Position numbers and translations under genes: made by a program. Below, piece by piece: positions 1,973 through 52,583 of a stretch of 64,000 nt of DNA (position 1 is its first letter; every line of letters begins with the position of its first letter). The notes beneath the pieces are model-generated. The model was not told the origin of the DNA. It did not search any database and saw only the letters and a list, made by a program, of their open reading frames with translations. Source of the stretch: Escherichia phage JEP8; sequence record MT764208.1; one strand, 5' to 3'.

Positions 1973-4741
1973 ATGGCAGATTTAAGCAGAATCCAATTTA
2001 AACGTACTAGCACTAAAGGCCGTCGACCTGATGCTGGTACGATGAATCCGGGGGAATTGGCAATCAACCTTGCGGATCAATATCTTCTTACTAAAAATGA
2101 TTCCGGTGCTATTATCAATTTAAGTTGTCCTCCGGTTTATGACCGCGATGTTACAATGGCAGGTAAGGTTAAAGGTAATAATTATATCTTAAGTAAAACC
2201 GCTAACTATCTGGAAGATCAGACAGCGCGAGATCTTAACTACTTTGGTGCTTTCCGTACCAATGGTCTTGATGGTTTTCTCGAACTCACGCTAAACGTTC
2301 CTCATTCTTCTGGTGTTCAGCATGGTCGAGGATTTACTTTCCAGTATGGACACACTGGATCGCGTGTAGAAACTTATGGCTATAATAAAGAAGGTCAAAA
2401 AGCATTTAGCTATAAAATGTATCATGAAGGTGATAAACCAACTCCAGGAGAATTGAACGTTTATAGCAAACAAGAAGTTGACCGTATGTTTGTTAAGAAC
2501 GTTAAACTTGCTACATCTCCTAGTGATATCGTTGAAGGCTATTTTAAATTAGCAACTGCAATGATTCCACAAAACGGTCTTAGCGTATTTTTCCGTATTC
2601 ATGGTGGTAACGGATATAACGTTACTGCATACGATCAAGTTGATATTGTAGAAATTGTTATTCGCAGTGGAAATGGTCGCCCTAAAGGTGTTAACGTTAT
2701 TGCATATCGCCGAAATACAAACAAATCATTTGATGTTTTGGCTGTTAATACTTCTGGTGATAACTATGATATCTATGTGAAATATCAGCGTTACACTGAT
2801 AACGTTATTGTTGAATTTGGTAAAAGTGTTGGTGTTAATCTGGTAGTTCATGACGTTCCAGATTTTGTTGCTGATCGTCCTGCTGGCGATAATGTTATTG
2901 GCGGTCGCGCGGTAACTCTTTTTAATACTGAAAATAAACGTGGTGTGTTAAGTTTTGATGATAACACACAAAACAGCTATGACATTGTTCACTTGAGTAA
3001 TGATAGGGGTACAGGACGAAAATATATTCGTAAATTCCGTAGCAACTATAATGAAATGATCTGGCATGAGACGGTTCAAGGTGCTACTTATCGTCTGGCT
3101 ACTGGTGCAACTGATGTTCAGGATATTCTAACCGTTGAATCTGTTAGCTCAATTTCTGGAACTCATAAAGGTAATATTACTTCTGGTCGTATGCTGTTAA
3201 ATGGTGGTAGTAATGTTATTACCTTGCGGCGTCCTGCTGGTCAATCCAACCATATTGCGTTTCAAGATAATCGTACTGGAGATATTACCCGTCAAGGATG
3301 GATCGGTTATGCCAATGCTAATACTAACGTTTTTGAATGGTATAGTGATGTAGGTGGCAGTTCTATTCGTCAACATATCGACGGACAGATCGAATTTCAG
3401 ACAGGTAGCATGAAGCGAGTTTATACTAACGGACAATTCATTTCATTATATGCCGATGGCTTCCGTACTGTATATGGTAACTATGGTTCATGGTGGCGAA
3501 ATGACGGTAGTAACGTTTATCTGATGAGCACAAAATCAGGCGACACTATGGGTCCGTGGAATACCTTTAGGCCGTTCATCTATAGCCTAGCCAATGGTAA
3601 CGTTACATTGGGGGGTAGTGATGCTGGCAACCATTTAATGCGTCTCAATAATGAAAGTAAACGAGTTGAAGTGAACGCAACCACACATCTTGGAAGCAGA
3701 CTGTATTGGGAACGTAACGACGAAGGATCGAAATCTGTATTCTTTGTTAAATCTTGGGGTAATGAAACTCGCGCTCAAGTGTGGGAACTTGCAGACGAAA
3801 CAAGCTATCATCTATATTCTCAGCGTGATTCTAACGGATCGATTCAATTTCGTGTTGCTGGTAGTTTGGAAACTGGAGGCCGCGCCCAGATTAATGGCGA
3901 TTTGGTCGTTACTAATGTTCTTCGTACAAATAACCAAATACAGATTTATAGAGATAACAACAAAGAGATCTGGTTTAAAGATGCTAATGGTACTAACCGT
4001 GGTGTTATCTGGGGAGATGGTGGCGGCAAAATGAGATTGCGTAACTATTCTGGTGGAGAATATGACCATGTGTTCGAAGCTGGTATGATTCGCCTTGAGC
4101 GTGGTTACGCCAATGGACAAGGTGCTGGGTTGATTCGCGGAGAAGTACAAGGTGGAGCATGGTCTGAATGGAGAACTCGCGCTGCTGGCTTATTGGTTGA
4201 CTGTCCAAATGCTCAAACTTCCGCATATAACGTATGGAAAGCGACCAAATGGGGTTTAGACCACATCGCGGCAATGGGTGTTCATGTTCCTAACGGTAAT
4301 GTTGGTAACTCTATTGCGCGTCTGCATGTTGGTGGCACTAACTTTGACTTTAACGCCTCCGGTGATTTCCAGGCAGGTCGTAACGGTAATTTTAACGATG
4401 TTTATATTCGCTCTGATGCTCGCCTTAAAATCAATAAGGAAGAGTATAAAGAGAATGCCACCGATAAAGTTAATCGCTTGACTGTGTACACCTACGATAA
4501 GGTTAAGTCTTTGACGGACCGCACTGTTATCGCTCATGAAGTTGGTATTATTGCTCAGGATCTTGAAAAAGAATTGCCGGAAGCAGTAACAACTTCTAAG
4601 ATCGGCGATCCTGATAAGCCAGAAGAGATCTTAACAATTTCTAACTCTGCTGTCAACGCTCTTTTAATTAAGGCGTTTCAGGAAATGAGCGAAGAATTGA
4701 AAGCCGTTAAAGCTGAACTAGCGGAACTTAAAAAGAATTAA
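1973..4741 (+). CDS. 37: long tail fibre distal subunit gp37 with C-terminal intramolecular chaperone (peptidase S74-type) domain
   Basis: N-terminus MADLSRIQFKRTSTKGRRPDAG..GELAINL resembles T4 gp37 MATLKQIQFKRSK..GELAINL; last 108 aa carry SDARLK..IAQDLEKELPEAV as in endosialidase/T5 fibre chaperone domains. Confidence 0.85.
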   Translation: MADLSRIQFKRTSTKGRRPDAGTMNPGELAINLADQYLLTKNDSGAIINLSCPPVYDRDVTMAGKVKGNNYILSKTANYLEDQTARDLNYFGAFRTNGLDGFLELTLNVPHSSGVQHGRGFTFQYGHTGSRVETYGYNKEGQKAFSYKMYHEGDKPTPGELNVYSKQEVDRMFVKNVKLATSPSDIVEGYFKLATAMIPQNGLSVFFRIHGGNGYNVTAYDQVDIVEIVIRSGNGRPKGVNVIAYRRNTNKSFDVLAVNTSGDNYDIYVKYQRYTDNVIVEFGKSVGVNLVVHDVPDFVADRPAGDNVIGGRAVTLFNTENKRGVLSFDDNTQNSYDIVHLSNDRGTGRKYIRKFRSNYNEMIWHETVQGATYRLATGATDVQDILTVESVSSISGTHKGNITSGRMLLNGGSNVITLRRPAGQSNHIAFQDNRTGDITRQGWIGYANANTNVFEWYSDVGGSSIRQHIDGQIEFQTGSMKRVYTNGQFISLYADGFRTVYGNYGSWWRNDGSNVYLMSTKSGDTMGPWNTFRPFIYSLANGNVTLGGSDAGNHLMRLNNESKRVEVNATTHLGSRLYWERNDEGSKSVFFVKSWGNETRAQVWELADETSYHLYSQRDSNGSIQFRVAGSLETGGRAQINGDLVVTNVLRTNNQIQIYRDNNKEIWFKDANGTNRGVIWGDGGGKMRLRNYSGGEYDHVFEAGMIRLERGYANGQGAGLIRGEVQGGAWSEWRTRAAGLLVDCPNAQTSAYNVWKATKWGLDHIAAMGVHVPNGNVGNSIARLHVGGTNFDFNASGDFQAGRNGNFNDVYIRSDARLKINKEEYKENATDKVNRLTVYTYDKVKSLTDRTVIAHEVGIIAQDLEKELPEAVTTSKIGDPDKPEEILTISNSAVNALLIKAFQEMSEELKAVKAELAELKKN

Positions 4742-31393: not shown

Positions 31394-31420
31394 TTATACA
31401 CACTTTATCTTAAATGTCAA
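31393..31420 (-). promoter_or_regulatory. sigma70-like early promoter (-35 TTGACA overlapping gene 43 stop, -10 TATAAT)
   Basis: 16 nt spacer. Confidence 0.45.
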
Positions 31421-32886
31421 ACAGGTCCGTAAGCGATGCCACCTTTTCATATTGCAGCTTTGCAGCCGTGGTAATGTTCTCCAGTGGTTTGACGAAAGTC
31501 TTATTAAACAACAAAGGCCAGTCTAACCACTTTAACACCTCGCTTTCAATCTCTGGAGGAATACGAGTACCGGACAACCAACCAAAACAGATTTCTCCAA
31601 ACGGATTTCGATCTTTCAGCGGTACAATCATAACCTTCTCGCCTTCACGAATCGGATCTAGTCCGAATTTTCGAGCATTACGATTATAACACAATACACT
31701 CTTAACCGCATACGGACAACCCTTAATCGGATACCCGTTTGAATCGCTGTATTTCTGTAGGTTGTTTGCAGATGATACCGCAGCAACATCAAGATAGTCA
31801 AGTTTTCTAAATTCTTGCTCAAAAATACCGTAGTATTCCTGCAATGACTCTTCACCTTCCTGCAACATACGGCGAATACATTCTTTCAGTGATTTCTGAC
31901 ATGCTTTCGGGGTGGAGCTACGTTGCGTTTCCAAGCCCATGATTTTTAGCTTAGGTTCAGCAAAGCGCGTTCCTTCCATATCCCAAACATTAAGAGCATA
32001 ACGCTTTTTACCAGTCCAGAATCCACCGATACCCGCAGATTTCAATGGAGGACCAGCAATTGCCTCACGGTCCATAAACATCAAGTGCTCATAGTTGTTC
32101 ATGTACTCGCATAACTCGCGATATCCCTCGTCGATAATAGGTTCCATTCGATGTTTACCGAAATTATCAAGGAAGTCAACAAGTTTTTCGGTATCGTCGA
32201 AACGGTCTTCCCCACCAACCTTATCAATAACATTGTTAACCAGCACATAAACGGAGTCAGTATCACAATAACGAACATATGCAAAATCAGTTGTTCCGCA
32301 AAGCTCGTTTAAGTATTCGTTAATCTTACGCTCAATCCACTGAATTGCAAGCTGACCGAACAGTGTGATCGCACTAGCGTTACGGAGATCATAAAAACGG
32401 AATTTAGGATTCCCCAACGCACCATAAAGGGAGTTGATCAAAACTTTTCGAGAAAGCTGGTTTGTATTGCACAAGATCGACTCGTCTTTACATTCATCCA
32501 GCAATTTCTCTAAGGCATCTTTACTTAATTCAGAAAGCATCGATTTAAACGCTTCGTCAAAGTCGTGACGCACTTCAACGCTATAGCTAATGGTTCCCCC
32601 ATAAACATGATTTTCATCGTGTAGAATCGCTTTACAGAGTTCAGCATTGCGATCACATGCCAACATCATGTTTTTGTACTGCTTACGCTGATCGAATACC
32701 TTTTTAATCTCAATCGGTACGATACCATGAATATCTTTTCGATACATCCATCCGTTAGGCGAGCAAGAATACTCATCACTAGGACGTGGTGCAGTTTTAT
32801 TGATATACTCGTGCATCGGTGCAGCATCAAAAGATCCAGCGATTGTTTCCGGCGAAATGTTAACCTGACGGATGATTGATGGATAC
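31410..32886 (-). CDS. 43: DNA polymerase gp43, exon 2 (from second half of motif A, YPSIIRQ..., to stop)
   Basis: In-frame conserved YPSIIRQVNISPETI lies directly upstream of the ORF-track ATG with no start codon; downstream blocks incl. YCDTDSVYV match recalled T4 gp43. Confidence 0.8.
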
Positions 32887-34000
32887 CATTATGTTCAGCG
32901 CGGTTCGCTACTCCCGCGCCCGTTCTCTTGCGAACTGCTACATGTCACCATGTAGATCAGACTATATCACATTCTCATAGAGAATCCTGCCATTTCGAAT
33001 CGCTTGATTCTACTCTACTCGGTTCGTTACCCTTTCGATAGTCGTTGAACAACTGCATCTTTAAGCTCATTTTGATCAAACGGTGTTCTCTTACAGTACC
33101 CGCTATAATTCTTAGCAAAAGGTTTCTTCTTACCAAAGATCTCTTTTCCTGAATTATGTGCTTCAACAAGAAAATTCACCATTTCATCAAATGTGAAACT
33201 TGCAAATTTAGCATAAGTTTCATTACGTTTTGACATTATTTTACTCATAACTTCCGGTCGTTTAGACGCTGAATTTTCGCGTTTCTCGCCAGTATTAAAT
33301 GATACCAACTCACCGGAAACATATCTAGGATCATCACAACTAACTCTAAACCGATTTCCTTCATTATCCTTAACGATAACAGTATTCTTTAGCTTTTCTG
33401 CCATAGAATCAAGACCTTTTCGTATAGTGTCCTCATCAGCCCCGAAATATTTCTTTCCGCTCATATCGGTTCTGGCTTTTCCGGTCTTGTTTTCGGATAT
33501 TTTCAGTCTAACTTCCTCTCGCTTGGCTGGGTTATTGTCTCCAGCGAATGCATCTTTGGTTAACGCCTTCACTTTATCGTCATAAGATCCTCTAGAGATG
33601 AAAGCATATGCTCTCTTGCATTCACCGTTATTGAATATTAAGCACAATAACCGATGCGCCTCGACGTGGTCTTCAAACTTAAGCCTAACAAGATTCCATT
33701 TATCTAACCGATATTCAGGGAACATTGACTTCGGGCATATATGATGCACCTCGGAATATTCTTCACCCTGATACGGATTAGACACCAGTTTAATGTAGTC
33801 GTTTAATGCTTCCTCGTTATGTATTTCGTACTTTCTTAAAATGTCTTTCATCTCGCGCCTCCAATGTATATCAATATCTATATACATTATAAGACACGTT
33901 AGCTCAAAATGCAACTGCTGCTGATTGTCTCCTTAGAGATTTCCCAGCAATTAAGCAGGTTATTCGATCACTGTCACCAGTGAAAGCCCCATATCAGTTT
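32887..34000 (-). mobile_element. group I intron (1114 nt) in gene 43 carrying an HNH homing-endonuclease ORF
   Basis: P (AAUUGCUGGGAAA), Q (AAUCAGCAGC), R (GUUCAACGACUA), S (GAUAUAGUCUG) elements; IGS GGGG pairs with exon CCCU; 5-prime exon ends in U and intron ends in G; P9-like hairpin with GUGA loop. Confidence 0.75.
33027..33851 (-). CDS. intron-encoded HNH homing endonuclease (274 aa)
   Basis: GGAGG Shine-Dalgarno then ATG (MKDILRKYE); EVHHICPKSMFP..WNLVRLKFEDHVEAH HNH motif; 3-prime end overlaps intron R element. Confidence 0.75.
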   Translation of the reverse strand: MKDILRKYEIHNEEALNDYIKLVSNPYQGEEYSEVHHICPKSMFPEYRLDKWNLVRLKFEDHVEAHRLLCLIFNNGECKRAYAFISRGSYDDKVKALTKDAFAGDNNPAKREEVRLKISENKTGKARTDMSGKKYFGADEDTIRKGLDSMAEKLKNTVIVKDNEGNRFRVSCDDPRYVSGELVSFNTGEKRENSASKRPEVMSKIMSKRNETYAKFASFTFDEMVNFLVEAHNSGKEIFGKKKPFAKNYSGYCKRTPFDQNELKDAVVQRLSKG

Positions 34001-35202
34001 AGGGAAGTAAGGTCAAAGCTCATCATCCAACGGTAAGCATTCGGCACAGGTTCTTTTACAAATGCGCCTGGATAAGTCTGCTTAGGCTGTATCTTATTTT
34101 CCGGTACTACTTTACCCTCTGCTTTCAGAGATCCGAAGATAATAGCATCCCATACCTTCATCGGGTTATATACATGGTTAAACTTAATTTTCGCATAGAA
34201 ACATAGACTATACACAAGATCGATAAATCCACGCTTTTTATCAATCGCCAGCACACGGTCAACGTCGCCGATGTTATAATCGATGTAAAGTTGATGGTTG
34301 TCATCACGCAATTTCTTTAATGGACCATCATAATCAACCTTACCGATTCCTGTCTCATATTCAGCAACATAATCTAATGCATATGTTGGTTGAGTCGTAA
34401 AGCTAAATTTCTTGTACAGGTCAATATAATCAAGGCTTTCGATCCCCATGATCGTAAATGCTTCACGCTCGTTGCCAAAATCATCCTGTGAGATTCTGGA
34501 TTTAATCTTACCGCACGGGCTTAGACGGTTTGCCGTTCGACTTCCAAACTTATTCCCGATACGTTTAATGATATATGGAATATCGAATGTTTCTGTGTTC
34601 CAGCCAGTGAAACCAACGGGTCGGTTTTCCTCAAAGAATCGGATGTATTCTAACAGCAATTCATCTTCTGTGTCATAAACGTTATAAACAACGCGCTCCA
34701 CAATATCAGGTCGAAGAATAGACTTGCTTGCTTCCCAGATTTCACCGTTTTTTCCTTTCAAATCAAATACAAAGAAACGATCATGTAAGGAATCATAATG
34801 CGTAATTGCATCGATAGGATATTTCGCTTCTTCTGGTTTAGGAAATTCTGGGGCAGTGACCTCAATATCAACCCACGCTACACGGATTTTATTTCGGTCA
34901 TATCGAATCTCGCCTTTATATGTATCGGACAGATAGGAGATGATAAAATCATCCATCCCTAGTGCCTCTTGCCCCATTTCCCCCATCTTTTTACGCCATT
35001 TGTTGGCCTCGTTCATAGATGGGAATTTTTTAGCAATGCAAGGCTTGCCATAGATATCTTTATAATTCGTAACCATACCAGGCGCGGCATGATGAAATAA
35101 AGTTGGCGTATATTCAACGTAACGCTCTTGTTCTTGTCCAGCATCATCAATATAACGCTCGTAGATCTTATCACCCACTCGCTCACATGACAGAAAATAC
35201 AT
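34001..35202 (-). CDS. 43: DNA polymerase gp43, exon 1 (N-terminal and exonuclease domains up to ...SFDLTSL)
   Basis: ERYID, FPSM, DIEVT, IDAITHYDS, FTGWN.E.FD.PYI, YDGP..KLR..NHQ.YI.YNI.DV, WDAIIF.SLK, PGAFV.EP, MSFDLTSL match recalled T4 gp43; start at ATG after GGAGGAG. Confidence 0.8.
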
Positions 35203-50720: not shown

Positions 50721-52583
50721 TTACATGTGCTTAACGCGGTTTACCATCTCGGAGTGTTTCCCGTGGTTAAATGGACGCAGATCAACAGATCCAAGATATC
50801 CACTAACGCGACGGATAACATTCATCTTTTCCAGATTGTCATTGCCGCAATCAGGGCAAACAAAACCAGACTCGGTCGCTCTCATTTCCTTATTAGATCC
50901 ACATACATGACATACATCAGAAGGAGTATTAACACCGAAGTAGTGCAATTTATCCATTGCATAGTCTACTACAGTTTCAAGACCTTTCAGGTTGTTTTTC
51001 ATGTCTGGGAACTCAACATAAGAGATCATGCCACCGGACGCCAGCCAGTGATAATCTTTCTCAAAGTCGATTTTCTCAAATGGTGTGACTTTCCGGTCTA
51101 CGTCAAGGTGGAATGAGTTGGTGTACCAGTCTTTATCGGTAGCACCCTTAACAATACCAAATTGCTCTCTGTCCAGTCGATTAAATCGATAGCAAAGGCT
51201 CTCGGCTGGCGTACCGTAAAGACTAAACCCAAGTCCGGTTTCATCCTTCCATTTTTCAGTATAATGACGCAAGATCTTAAGAATATGTTTACCGTATCGC
51301 TGCGCATCTTCCGAATCAAACGGATGAACACCAAACAGGACGCTCAATACCTCATGTAAACCAATATATCCAAGAGAGATACTAGCGCGACCATCTTTCA
51401 ACACTTCCAAAATTTCATCGTTTTGATGAATACGGAAAAATGCACCTTCTGTATACAGCACCGGAGCAACATTGGCTTTAGCGCCTTTTAAAGCGTCTAC
51501 GCGACTCATGAGCGCATCAAAGCAAATAGGCATACGATTGGCTAGCTCTTGTTCGAATAGCTCAATTCTGCGCATTACAGACGCTTTACCAGCACGACGC
51601 GCGGCAATAAGGGCAATACGCGGAAGATTCAGAGTCACAACACCTAAGTTATTACGTCCGTCTAATACTTCTTCTCCTTTCTCATTATGCCACACACCCA
51701 GGAAGCTACGACAACCCATCGGGCTAACCGGAACACTAGATCCGGTGATACTACGGTTATTCTTCGCAGAGATATAATCAGGGTAAAGACGCTTACTAGA
51801 ACATTCCAATGCAAGTTGCTTAATGTCGTAGTTCGGATCTTCCGGTTTAAGGTTTAATCCTTCTTCTAAGAACATCACCAGCTTAGGAAACACCGGAGTG
51901 ATACCATCTTTACCTAAACCTTTAGTTCGAACGTTCAGGATCGCTTTCTGAATCAGTTTTTCTTCCCAGCTAGTACCCATACCAAAGGTTAAAGTCACAA
52001 AAGGCGTTTGACCGTTGGTGGAGAACAAAGTGTTGATTTCATATTCCAACGCTTGATACCCGTCTAAAGTTTCTTTTTCTGTCTTCTCTTGTGCATAGAG
52101 AGTATCAGCTTTGATTCCGTAGGTTTCGGCATCAGCAAGGTGTTTATGATATGTTTTCTCAACATACGGTGCTAACACCTGATCGATGTTTGCGATTGTG
52201 GTCCCTCCATATTGATGACTTGCCACCTGTGCGATAATTTGAGCGGTCACAGCACATGCAACACCGATCGATTTAGGACTTTCGATTTGTGCGCTACCCA
52301 ATTTAAAACCATTCTCTAACATGTCTTTGAGATTAACAAGACAGCAGTTAGTAAACGGCATAGCGGGTGCATAATCCATATCATGATAATGAATATCACC
52401 GTCTACATGCGCTTTATAGATGTGCTCAGGTAACACGGTTTTAGCAATCTGTTTAGACACAGCACCAGCAATCAGATCTCGACGTGTCGGGAATGTTCGC
52501 GCGTCTTTGTTCGCGTTCTCTTTACTTACTTCGTTTTCTTTACCCGTTGCGATCTCTGTAATGTCTTTGATTAGTTTTTCCAT
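50721..52583 (-). CDS. nrdD: anaerobic ribonucleoside-triphosphate reductase NrdD (glycyl radical enzyme), uninterrupted
   Basis: Extensive blocks match recalled T4 NrdD incl. NANKD.R.FPT.RDL, PFTNCCLV.LK.MLENGFKLG.AQIE.PKSIG, C-terminal CxxC zinc ribbon and glycyl-radical RVSGYLG. Confidence 0.9.
   Translation of the reverse strand: MEKLIKDITEIATGKENEVSKENANKDARTFPTRRDLIAGAVSKQIAKTVLPEHIYKAHVDGDIHYHDMDYAPAMPFTNCCLVNLKDMLENGFKLGSAQIESPKSIGVACAVTAQIIAQVASHQYGGTTIANIDQVLAPYVEKTYHKHLADAETYGIKADTLYAQEKTEKETLDGYQALEYEINTLFSTNGQTPFVTLTFGMGTSWEEKLIQKAILNVRTKGLGKDGITPVFPKLVMFLEEGLNLKPEDPNYDIKQLALECSSKRLYPDYISAKNNRSITGSSVPVSPMGCRSFLGVWHNEKGEEVLDGRNNLGVVTLNLPRIALIAARRAGKASVMRRIELFEQELANRMPICFDALMSRVDALKGAKANVAPVLYTEGAFFRIHQNDEILEVLKDGRASISLGYIGLHEVLSVLFGVHPFDSEDAQRYGKHILKILRHYTEKWKDETGLGFSLYGTPAESLCYRFNRLDREQFGIVKGATDKDWYTNSFHLDVDRKVTPFEKIDFEKDYHWLASGGMISYVEFPDMKNNLKGLETVVDYAMDKLHYFGVNTPSDVCHVCGSNKEMRATESGFVCPDCGNDNLEKMNVIRRVSGYLGSVDLRPFNHGKHSEMVNRVKHM

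Follow-up and report, generated by a model that had tools for sequence, protein, structure and literature searches.

The group I introns of bacteriophage T4 interrupt td, nrdB and nrdD (sunY), essential genes of nucleotide and DNA metabolism, and are patchily distributed among related phages; they belong to the class that carries the helices P7.1 and P7.2, and those in td and nrdB have an open reading frame (ORF) looped out of helix P6. Phage DNA polymerase genes are also known to contain group I introns, examples being those of SPO1, Bastille, T7-like phages, Pf-WMP3 and Aeromonas phage 25 (PMC2988022, PMC3428280). In phage JSE, an insert in gene 43 has been flagged as a putative intron with the relic of a homing endonuclease gene (HEG) (Petrov et al. 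2010, Virol J 7:292, PMC2993671), and two putative introns, I-LimII and I-LimIII, have been assigned to the polymerase gene of phage LIMEstone1, without RNA analysis (Adriaenssens et al. 2012, PMC3296691). Here we have analyzed a window of 64,000 nt of Escherichia phage JEP8 (MT764208.1), to which all coordinates below refer, and we conclude with high confidence that the minus strand of positions 32887..34000 is a mobile T4-like group I intron (subgroup IA, bearing P7.1 and P7.2) located in the motif A codons of gene 43. The splicing chemistry of this element, the activity of its endonuclease and the target of that enzyme are all predicted from sequence.

The boundaries of the insert are unambiguous because gene 43 of phage RB49 is uninterrupted and, in a three-way alignment with RB49 and JSE, lacks precisely the 1114 nt from 32887 to 34000. 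Exon 1 (34001..35202, minus strand, as are all features of the element) begins with the ATG at 35202, is collinear with residues 1-401 of RB49 gp43, and ends at 34001 with ...AGC TTT GAC CTT ACT TCC CT, which encodes ...SFDLTS and provides the first two bases, CT, of a Leu codon. The intron (32887..34000), which is recognized by its absence from RB49, by matches to the Rfam model RF00028 and by covariation, has A as its first and G as its last base. Exon 2 (31410..32886) supplies the G of the Leu codon and continues with YPSIIRQVNISPETI... up to the stop codon. In motif A (D-L-T-S-L|Y-P-S) of this PolB-type replicative polymerase, the insertion point separates bases 2 and 3 of the Leu codon. 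At the site, the DNA of gene 43 reads ...GACTTAACAAGTCTGTATCCATC... in the RB49 type and ...GACCTTACTTCCCTGTATCC... in the intron-plus, spliced type.

A preliminary description of this locus had stated that the N-terminal polymerase ORF ends shortly after the exon, that the C-terminal ORF is preceded in frame by codons without a start, and that joining the two parts restores motif A and a polymerase of about 892 aa; each of these statements holds. The unspliced frame, CT|A AAC TGA, reaches a stop at 33994, 7 nt inside the insert, and exon 2 is open in frame from 32886 (G TAT CCA TCA ATC ...), with no in-frame ATG, GTG or TTG ahead of 32816, 23 codons past the junction, and no Shine-Dalgarno sequence at its boundary. 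Joining the exons in silico gives a gene of 2679 nt (junction FDLTSLYPSIIRQVNISPETI) that encodes 892 aa with one terminal stop, and the product (about 100 kDa, junction peptide SFDLTSLYPSIIR) is identical to RB49 gp43 at 885/892 residues in a gapless alignment. The expected ligated RNA junction is ...ACUUCCCU|GUAUCCAUC, the exon 2 side of which may also be written GUAUCCAUCA. An intein was considered for this insert and excluded because the insert contains in-frame stop codons.

The insert contains the parts of a group I ribozyme, and the P, Q, R and S elements, the P9 hairpin with its GUGA loop, the GGGG guide and the terminal G all lie where the preliminary description had placed them. The internal guide GAUAUGGGG (33987..33995), evident on inspection of the sequence, can pair with the ligated junction CCCU|GUAUC at 9/9 positions: GGGG pairs with the exon 1 end CCCU to form P1, and GAUAU pairs with the exon 2 start GUAUC to form P10, the pair at the 5' splice site being a U.G wobble and the first P10 pair a G.U. 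The 5' splice site CCCU|A pairs with UGGGG, the U.G pair of P1 is kept in 9/9 aligned homologues, and exon 1 always ends in CCCU although the codons vary (TCC CT, or GCC CT in the Acinetobacter phage nACB2). The P10 partner tracks exon 2, being GUAU/GUAC in Pectobacterium phage POP12 and in locus L013; just 69% of the cells of P10 (GAUAU/GUAUC, 5 bp) are paired in the MAFFT alignment, and the LIMEstone-type copies have no contiguous P10. The P2 hairpin UCACUG-GUGA-CAGUGA (33968..33983), predicted by RNAfold, covaries at 6/6 pairs. It is followed by the P3 5' strand CCUGCU (33954..33959), whose partner GGCAGG (32986..32991) is supported by covariation, 100% of the cells being paired and 4/6 pairs being changed on both sides. 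The P4-P5-P4' region (UGCUGG...UCUC UAAG GAGA...UCAGCA, 33919..33949), which has a local Rfam match of its own, contains the P element AAUUGCUGGGAAA and the Q element AAUCAGCAGC; its P4 is nearly invariant and its P5 covaries.

The remainder of the core is reached by way of a long-range P6, in which the 5' strand GCAGUUGCAUUUUGAGCU (33901..33918) pairs across the ORF with the 3' strand AGCUUAAAGAUGCAGUUGU (33049..33067), the latter lying within the last codons of the HEG. This helix closes over the ORF with -18.8 kcal/mol (duplexfold), and an equivalent long-range P6 of different sequence is present in 11/11 relatives. The R element GUUCAACGACUA (33039..33050) is located inside the HEG, where it encodes the C-terminal VVQRL, and carries the P7 5' strand GACUA (33039..33043); the P7 3' strand UAGUC (32960..32964) is part of the S element GAUAUAGUCUG (32958..32968), and P7 is invariant in 9/9 sequences. 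P7.1 (UCG...CGA) and P7.2 (GAAUC AAGC GAUUC) occupy 32997..33038 between P7 and P3', a region that appears as 44 nt of extra sequence when compared with the Rfam consensus; all cells of P7.2 are paired (100%), and 4/5 of its pairs covary. In the Michel-Westhof classification, the presence of P7.1 and P7.2 between P7 and P3' defines subgroup IA, to which the T4 introns belong. The P8 hairpin AUUCUC UAU GAGAAU (32971..32985), obtained by RNAfold and from the alignment, covaries, and so do all three of P9 (CUACAUG GUGA CAUGUAG), P9.1 (GUUC...GAAC) and P9.2 (GCGCGG...CCGCGC), which together occupy 32898..32955. The 3' tail UGAACAUAAUG (32887..32897) ends in ...AAUG with the terminal omega G at 32887; its UGAAC is conserved in most homologues, and G is the last base in all 12 copies. 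RNAalifold also pairs GUUC at the start of R (33047..33050) with GAAC of the 3'-terminal UGAACA (32893..32896), a pairing that is beyond the reach of covariation because both strands are invariant in the six sequences folded.

Covariance-model searches and tests of covariation bear on whether this arrangement could be accidental. In an E-value-mode scan of all 64 kb with Rfam, Intron_gpI (RF00028) at 32938-33198(-) was the sole match (31.1 bits, E 4.5e-4), and a local search with this model gave E 1.1e-5 plus a separate 13.2-bit match to P4-P5 at 33919-33949. The ORF-deleted copy of JSE matches the full model (positions 1-253) with 42.9 bits and E 9.2e-9, and the model places P1, P2, P3, P4, P5, P6, P7, P3', P8, P7' and P9 on it. 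Judged by these E values, the group I motifs exceed what is expected by chance. The covariation test was performed on a MAFFT alignment of nine ORF-less introns, with a structure that takes in P10 and the P3/P7 pseudoknot; nACB2, misaligned in its 3' half in the first MAFFT alignment, was for that reason not entered in the formal pair count. In the nine sequences, 91.5% of the cells are paired, against 37-43% when the partners are slid by 1-3 columns. Changes on both sides occur in 32/67 pairs, compared with 9-11 for slid partners and a mean of 19.7 for shuffled alignments, none of the 500 shuffles (0/500) reaching the observed value, and the covariation score is 0.444 against about 0.10 in the controls. 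It should be noted that these figures are somewhat inflated, because it was from the window sequence that the structure had been built, and because the homologues are relatives of one another, but the margin over the controls is large despite this inflation. Without a supplied structure, RNAalifold recovers P1, P2, P4, P5, P7.2, P8, P9, P9.1 and P9.2, with compensatory double changes in 26/65 pairs.

The pairings suggest how the element would work. In the folded pre-mRNA, the guide GAUAUGGGG would hold the end of exon 1, CCCU, in P1 through its U.G pair and later the start of exon 2, GUAUC, in P10. Attack by exogenous guanosine behind the U at 34001 would release exon 1, which would in turn attack behind the terminal G at 32887, and ligation of the exons would yield an mRNA for a continuous gp43 of 892 aa. 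On unspliced RNA, ribosomes would meet a stop 7 nt inside the intron and YPSIIRQVNISPETIAGSFDAAP could not be made, so that replication of the phage probably depends on splicing. The 274-aa endonuclease would cut or nick the intron-less gene 43 of co-infecting relatives near the site, after which recombinational repair would copy the intron together with a short stretch of flanking exon, the process known as homing. P6', P7 and the beginning of P7.1 are made from the final 41 nt of the ORF, and a ribosome terminating at 33027 would open all three of the helices concerned. Completed translation of the ORF and a folded core are therefore expected to be mutually exclusive in a given RNA molecule.

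The HEG (33027..33851), looped out in P6, has an ATG preceded at six bases by a GGAGG ribosome-binding site (33858..33862) and encodes a protein of 274 aa, probably an HNH enzyme, as had been proposed. Searches of Pfam, NCBIfam and PDB with the sequence and profiles of this protein returned nothing useful, but the protein falls in PHROG 12434, 'HNH endonuclease' (1.8e-130), and phrog_655, 'homing endonuclease', and its N-terminal 70-190 residues match MobE/MobD-like HNH genes of T4-type phages. In an alignment of 28 homologues, E34, H36, H37, P40, H62 and H66 are invariant and N53 is nearly invariant, and the resulting motif E-x-HH-I-x-P ... WN ... H-x-x-x-H is the HNH pattern. Taken together, these similarities support, with moderate confidence in the fold, the assignment of the ORF as a Mob-like HNH homing endonuclease. 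A conserved C-terminus, (A/S)VVQRL(S/E)K, is also common to most of the 28 homologues in the alignment. In JEP8 the codons GUU GUU CAA CGA CUA UCG AAA are at the same time the R element, that is, the 5' strand of P7, and the start of P7.1, so that R lies inside the ORF and the overlap of the last codons with R announced by the preliminary description is borne out. The last 41 nt of the HEG (33027..33067) encode P6', P7 with the R element, and the start of P7.1, and protein and RNA appear to be jointly constrained over this segment. A 9-bp hairpin, AAUGUAUAU...AUAUACAUU, adjoins the GGAGG ribosome-binding site. In five relatives (loci L005, L011, L012, L013 and L015), a perfect T4 late-promoter motif, TATAAATA, is located 25-40 nt upstream of the HEG start; a scan for sigma-70 promoters upstream of the HEG found none.

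The closest described element is that of JSE. It occupies the same site in a phage of the same genus, Krischvirus, its first 149 nt are 100% identical, and its ribozyme is the same, with 1 nt differing in the ORF-less part. The JSE copy differs in being 464 nt long owing to a 650-nt deletion inside the HEG, whereas JEP8 has an intact HEG of 274 aa; in addition, the 3' strand of P9.2 is CCACGC in JSE instead of CCGCGC, which introduces one mismatch and may be an early sign of decay. The relationship between JEP8 and JSE resembles that between the nrdB intron of RB3, whose HEG (I-TevIII) is intact, and that of T4, whose HEG is truncated (PMC2993671). The element of LIMEstone1 (I-LimII) has the same architecture and is inserted at the same motif A codon position (D-L-N-S-L|Y-P-H), its ORF-less ribozyme is 69% identical (82-89% over 74 nt at the 5' end), and its HEG, a homologue (35% aa), likewise extends into R. 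LIMEstone1 nevertheless belongs to another phage family, its polymerase exons are only ~32-36% identical in protein, and its P7.1 and P8 are longer. The endonuclease I-LimII is listed as GIY-YIG in Table 1 of PMC3296691 but as HNH in RefSeq NC_019925, and the homologue P0038 in our alignment has the HNH pattern.

With the T4 introns, the JEP8 element shares the intron class, the ORF in P6 (td and nrdB), the kind of host gene and the patchy distribution. It differs in the host gene itself, in having a probable Mob-like HNH enzyme where T4 has the GIY-YIG enzymes I-TevI/II, and in that its ORF runs into the catalytic core (P6', P7, P7.1). The nrdD gene of JEP8 (50721..52583, minus strand) is uninterrupted, as the preliminary description had stated, since the Pfam NRDD model aligns with it over its full length. 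The other polymerase introns, those of SPO1/SP82 (I-HmuI/II), Bastille (I-BasI), T7-like phages, Pf-WMP3 (I-PfoP3I) and Aeromonas phage 25 (25.g43B), are self-splicing and resemble the JEP8 element in that they contain or are served by HNH enzymes whose targets are conserved polymerase motifs; they differ in that the polymerases are mostly of family A, in their insertion sites, and in that several of their HNH enzymes nick. The intron of Aeromonas phage 25 reportedly lies in the 43B cistron and has no HEG of its own. Our search of the literature found no paper on the full-length Krischvirus element as such, nor one on how it folds or splices; the only papers found on introns of Krischvirus or RB49-like phages were reviews from 2010.

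JEP8 is, by its sequence, an RB49-like coliphage of the genus Krischvirus, and the flanking order gp62, regA, gene 43, small ORF, uvsX is that of the RB49 replication cluster. The 1.9 kb around the element are 100% identical to Phage ELT4 and 97-99% identical to Krischvirus ECD7, kvi, MIZ4/5, G2494, G5211, Cognac, PTE-Eco09 and JK32. Of 66 matching records, mostly from Krischvirus, 11 contain the full element and 2 (both JSE) the HEG-deleted form, while the others among the matches listed are without it; the element is present in MIZ4/5 and absent from MIZ2/3/6, isolates of the same series. Gene 43 differs from that of RB49 at 63/2679 positions (2.4%), and six of these differences, all synonymous, are found at -11 to -3 of the junction, where GAC CTT ACT TCC CT replaces GAC TTA ACA AGT CT. 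The clustered changes, which JSE has in common with JEP8, create the CCCU used in P1, and CCCU is found in every intron-bearing lineage. They would fit co-conversion of donor exon during homing and, possibly, could serve to guard the carrier against its own enzyme. An intron-less Krischvirus allele with donor-type flanks, the footprint that precise loss would leave, was not found in the collection, in which RB49 has the best contiguous allele (91%).

The element is not confined to Krischvirus. BLAST searches with the ORF-less intron ends and tblastn searches with the ORF revealed homologous insertions in Pectobacterium phage POP12, of the Straboviridae, and in Dickeya phage LIMEstone1, Salmonella phages CRW-SP2 and allotria and Acinetobacter phage nACB2, of the Ackermannviridae, and a search of 5.8 billion proteins yielded 42 HEG homologues, for five of which the metagenome contigs were read. 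In ten homologous loci, the insert is 1104-1204 nt long, follows ...CCCU, whose final two bases open the Leu codon of D-x-x-S/A-L|Y-P, and ends in G, after which (G/A)UAUCC or GUACCC encodes Y-P; none of the homologues read shows any shift of frame across the junction. The ORF-less ribozymes of LIMEstone1, CRW-SP2 and L014 are 69-74% identical to that of JEP8, against ~32-36% in protein for the flanking polymerase exons. This contrast is compatible with transfer between phage families but could also reflect strong constraint on the structure of the RNA. We tentatively propose, giving the idea slightly less than an even chance, that a single lineage of intron and HEG has moved horizontally between Straboviridae (of Escherichia and Pectobacterium) and Ackermannviridae (of Dickeya, Salmonella and Acinetobacter), always entering at the same base of the Leu codon, and that the two parts form a co-evolved unit of which neither can be cleanly lost because VVQRLSK is encoded by R/P7. 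If true, such spread would contradict the view, expressed in 2010, that these introns do not cross between clusters of T4-related phages.

Some of these relatives have further peculiarities. The polymerase genes of LIMEstone1 (L004, 5088..5930) and allotria (L009, 4588..5430) contain a second, downstream insertion with an oppositely oriented HEG (I-LimIII), so that in these Ackermannviridae the gene is in three pieces. In the metagenome contigs L011 (3521..5830) and L015 (3804..5437), exon 2 starts correctly with YPSIIRQVNISPETI, but the gene caller then reports only small ORFs in place of a C-terminal polymerase part of ~490 aa, which could be due to frameshifts at low coverage (1.4x for L011) or to further insertions. 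The 3' core of the intron is also 74% similar to positions 3001..3171 of Escherichia phage A7_1 (L008), in a match that lies within an oppositely oriented hypothetical ORF and adjoins, on the upstream side, a Vequintavirinae DNA primase/helicase gene, and it is 68% similar to sequences in phiKZ-like Pseudomonas phages. Both matches presumably represent further group I introns of this subgroup, most of which lack annotation.

Three observations weigh against a spliced, mobile intron and are considered here together with the alternative explanations. A scan of the whole window with Rfam in gathering mode gave no match, since the scores of 31.1 (window) and 42.9 (JSE) are both below the curated gathering score of 50 bits for RF00028, so that the core claimed by the preliminary description draws the sole Rfam match of the window but at a sub-threshold score; our search of the literature brought up no experiments on splicing or cleavage by members of this intron lineage; and JEP8 (33868..33885) and JSE carry TATAATGTA where the five relatives have the late-promoter motif TATAAATA, an alteration that may impair expression of the HEG. 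The low Rfam scores might be taken to mean that the group I-like motifs are due to chance or are a dead remnant, and that the insertion is some other element, but the scores are accounted for by two insertions, an ORF of 825 nt in P6 and a stretch of 44 nt that separates P7 from P3', and the E value of 9e-9 for JSE, the covariation far above the controls and the fact that cultured phage isolates carry the insert within their replicative polymerase gene effectively refute this explanation, to which we attach next to no probability. It is also very improbable that the insert remains unspliced and that gene 43 is truly split, encoding two polypeptides like 43A/43B of Aeromonas phages 44RR and 25 with a free-standing HNH gene in between. 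Two-subunit split gp43 enzymes do exist in relatives of T4 (PMC2988022), and the GenBank records are annotated in this way: all 11 deposited genomes with the full element have two 'DNA polymerase' CDS and a hypothetical or HNH protein, the deposited records examined have no intron feature, and in those of JSE and ECD7 the second CDS begins at the ATG equivalent to 32816, dropping 23 codons of exon 2. Such a start would remove YPSIIRQVNISPETI..., the second half of motif A, and a split gene would account neither for an exon 2 boundary devoid of start codon and Shine-Dalgarno sequence, nor for the exact maintenance of the frame in all homologues read, nor for a complete, covarying ribozyme fold.

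More serious, though still unlikely, is the possibility that the intron splices and is inherited vertically, while the endonuclease is no longer an active homing enzyme but is silenced, decaying or kept for the sake of the 3' end of the ribozyme. The altered late-promoter motif would agree with this, as would JSE, which has lost its HEG by the internal deletion and kept the ribozyme, and the C-terminal codons of the HEG may be constrained by RNA structure rather than by the protein. The ORF in JEP8 is nevertheless intact, with its GGAGG ribosome-binding site and all residues of the catalytic motif retained, and the protein is 98.9-100% identical in the two copies listed (ELT4 and Cognac). The intron differs from that of ECD7 at 7/1114 bases, and its patchy presence in very close relatives, as in MIZ4/5 against MIZ2/3/6, together with the clustered exon differences resembles the outcome of recent homing. 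A group I intron with an HNH homing endonuclease, as originally described, is thus supported by the exact excision relative to RB49, the Rfam match and the P1/P10 pairing with both exons, as well as by covariation among insertions at the same codon, by the patchy distribution and by the existence of the HEG-deleted derivative in JSE.

In summary, the JEP8 element is the intact 'wild' form of the relic seen in JSE; it is real but ordinary, since its class is textbook knowledge, and it neither represents a new type of system nor changes the current understanding of group I introns. Because Rfam at its default threshold misses the intron, an essential polymerase has been mis-annotated as split. 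The empty RB49, the full JEP8 and the decayed JSE together provide a natural three-state system in phages of E. coli in which the life cycle of homing could be followed, and the overlap between ORF and ribozyme makes the element a convenient case for studying the mutual exclusion of HEG translation and splicing. The points that we consider most interesting are the possible spread of the element to the same site in two families of phages, and the manner in which the 3' end of its HEG appears hard-wired into the catalytic core of the ribozyme.

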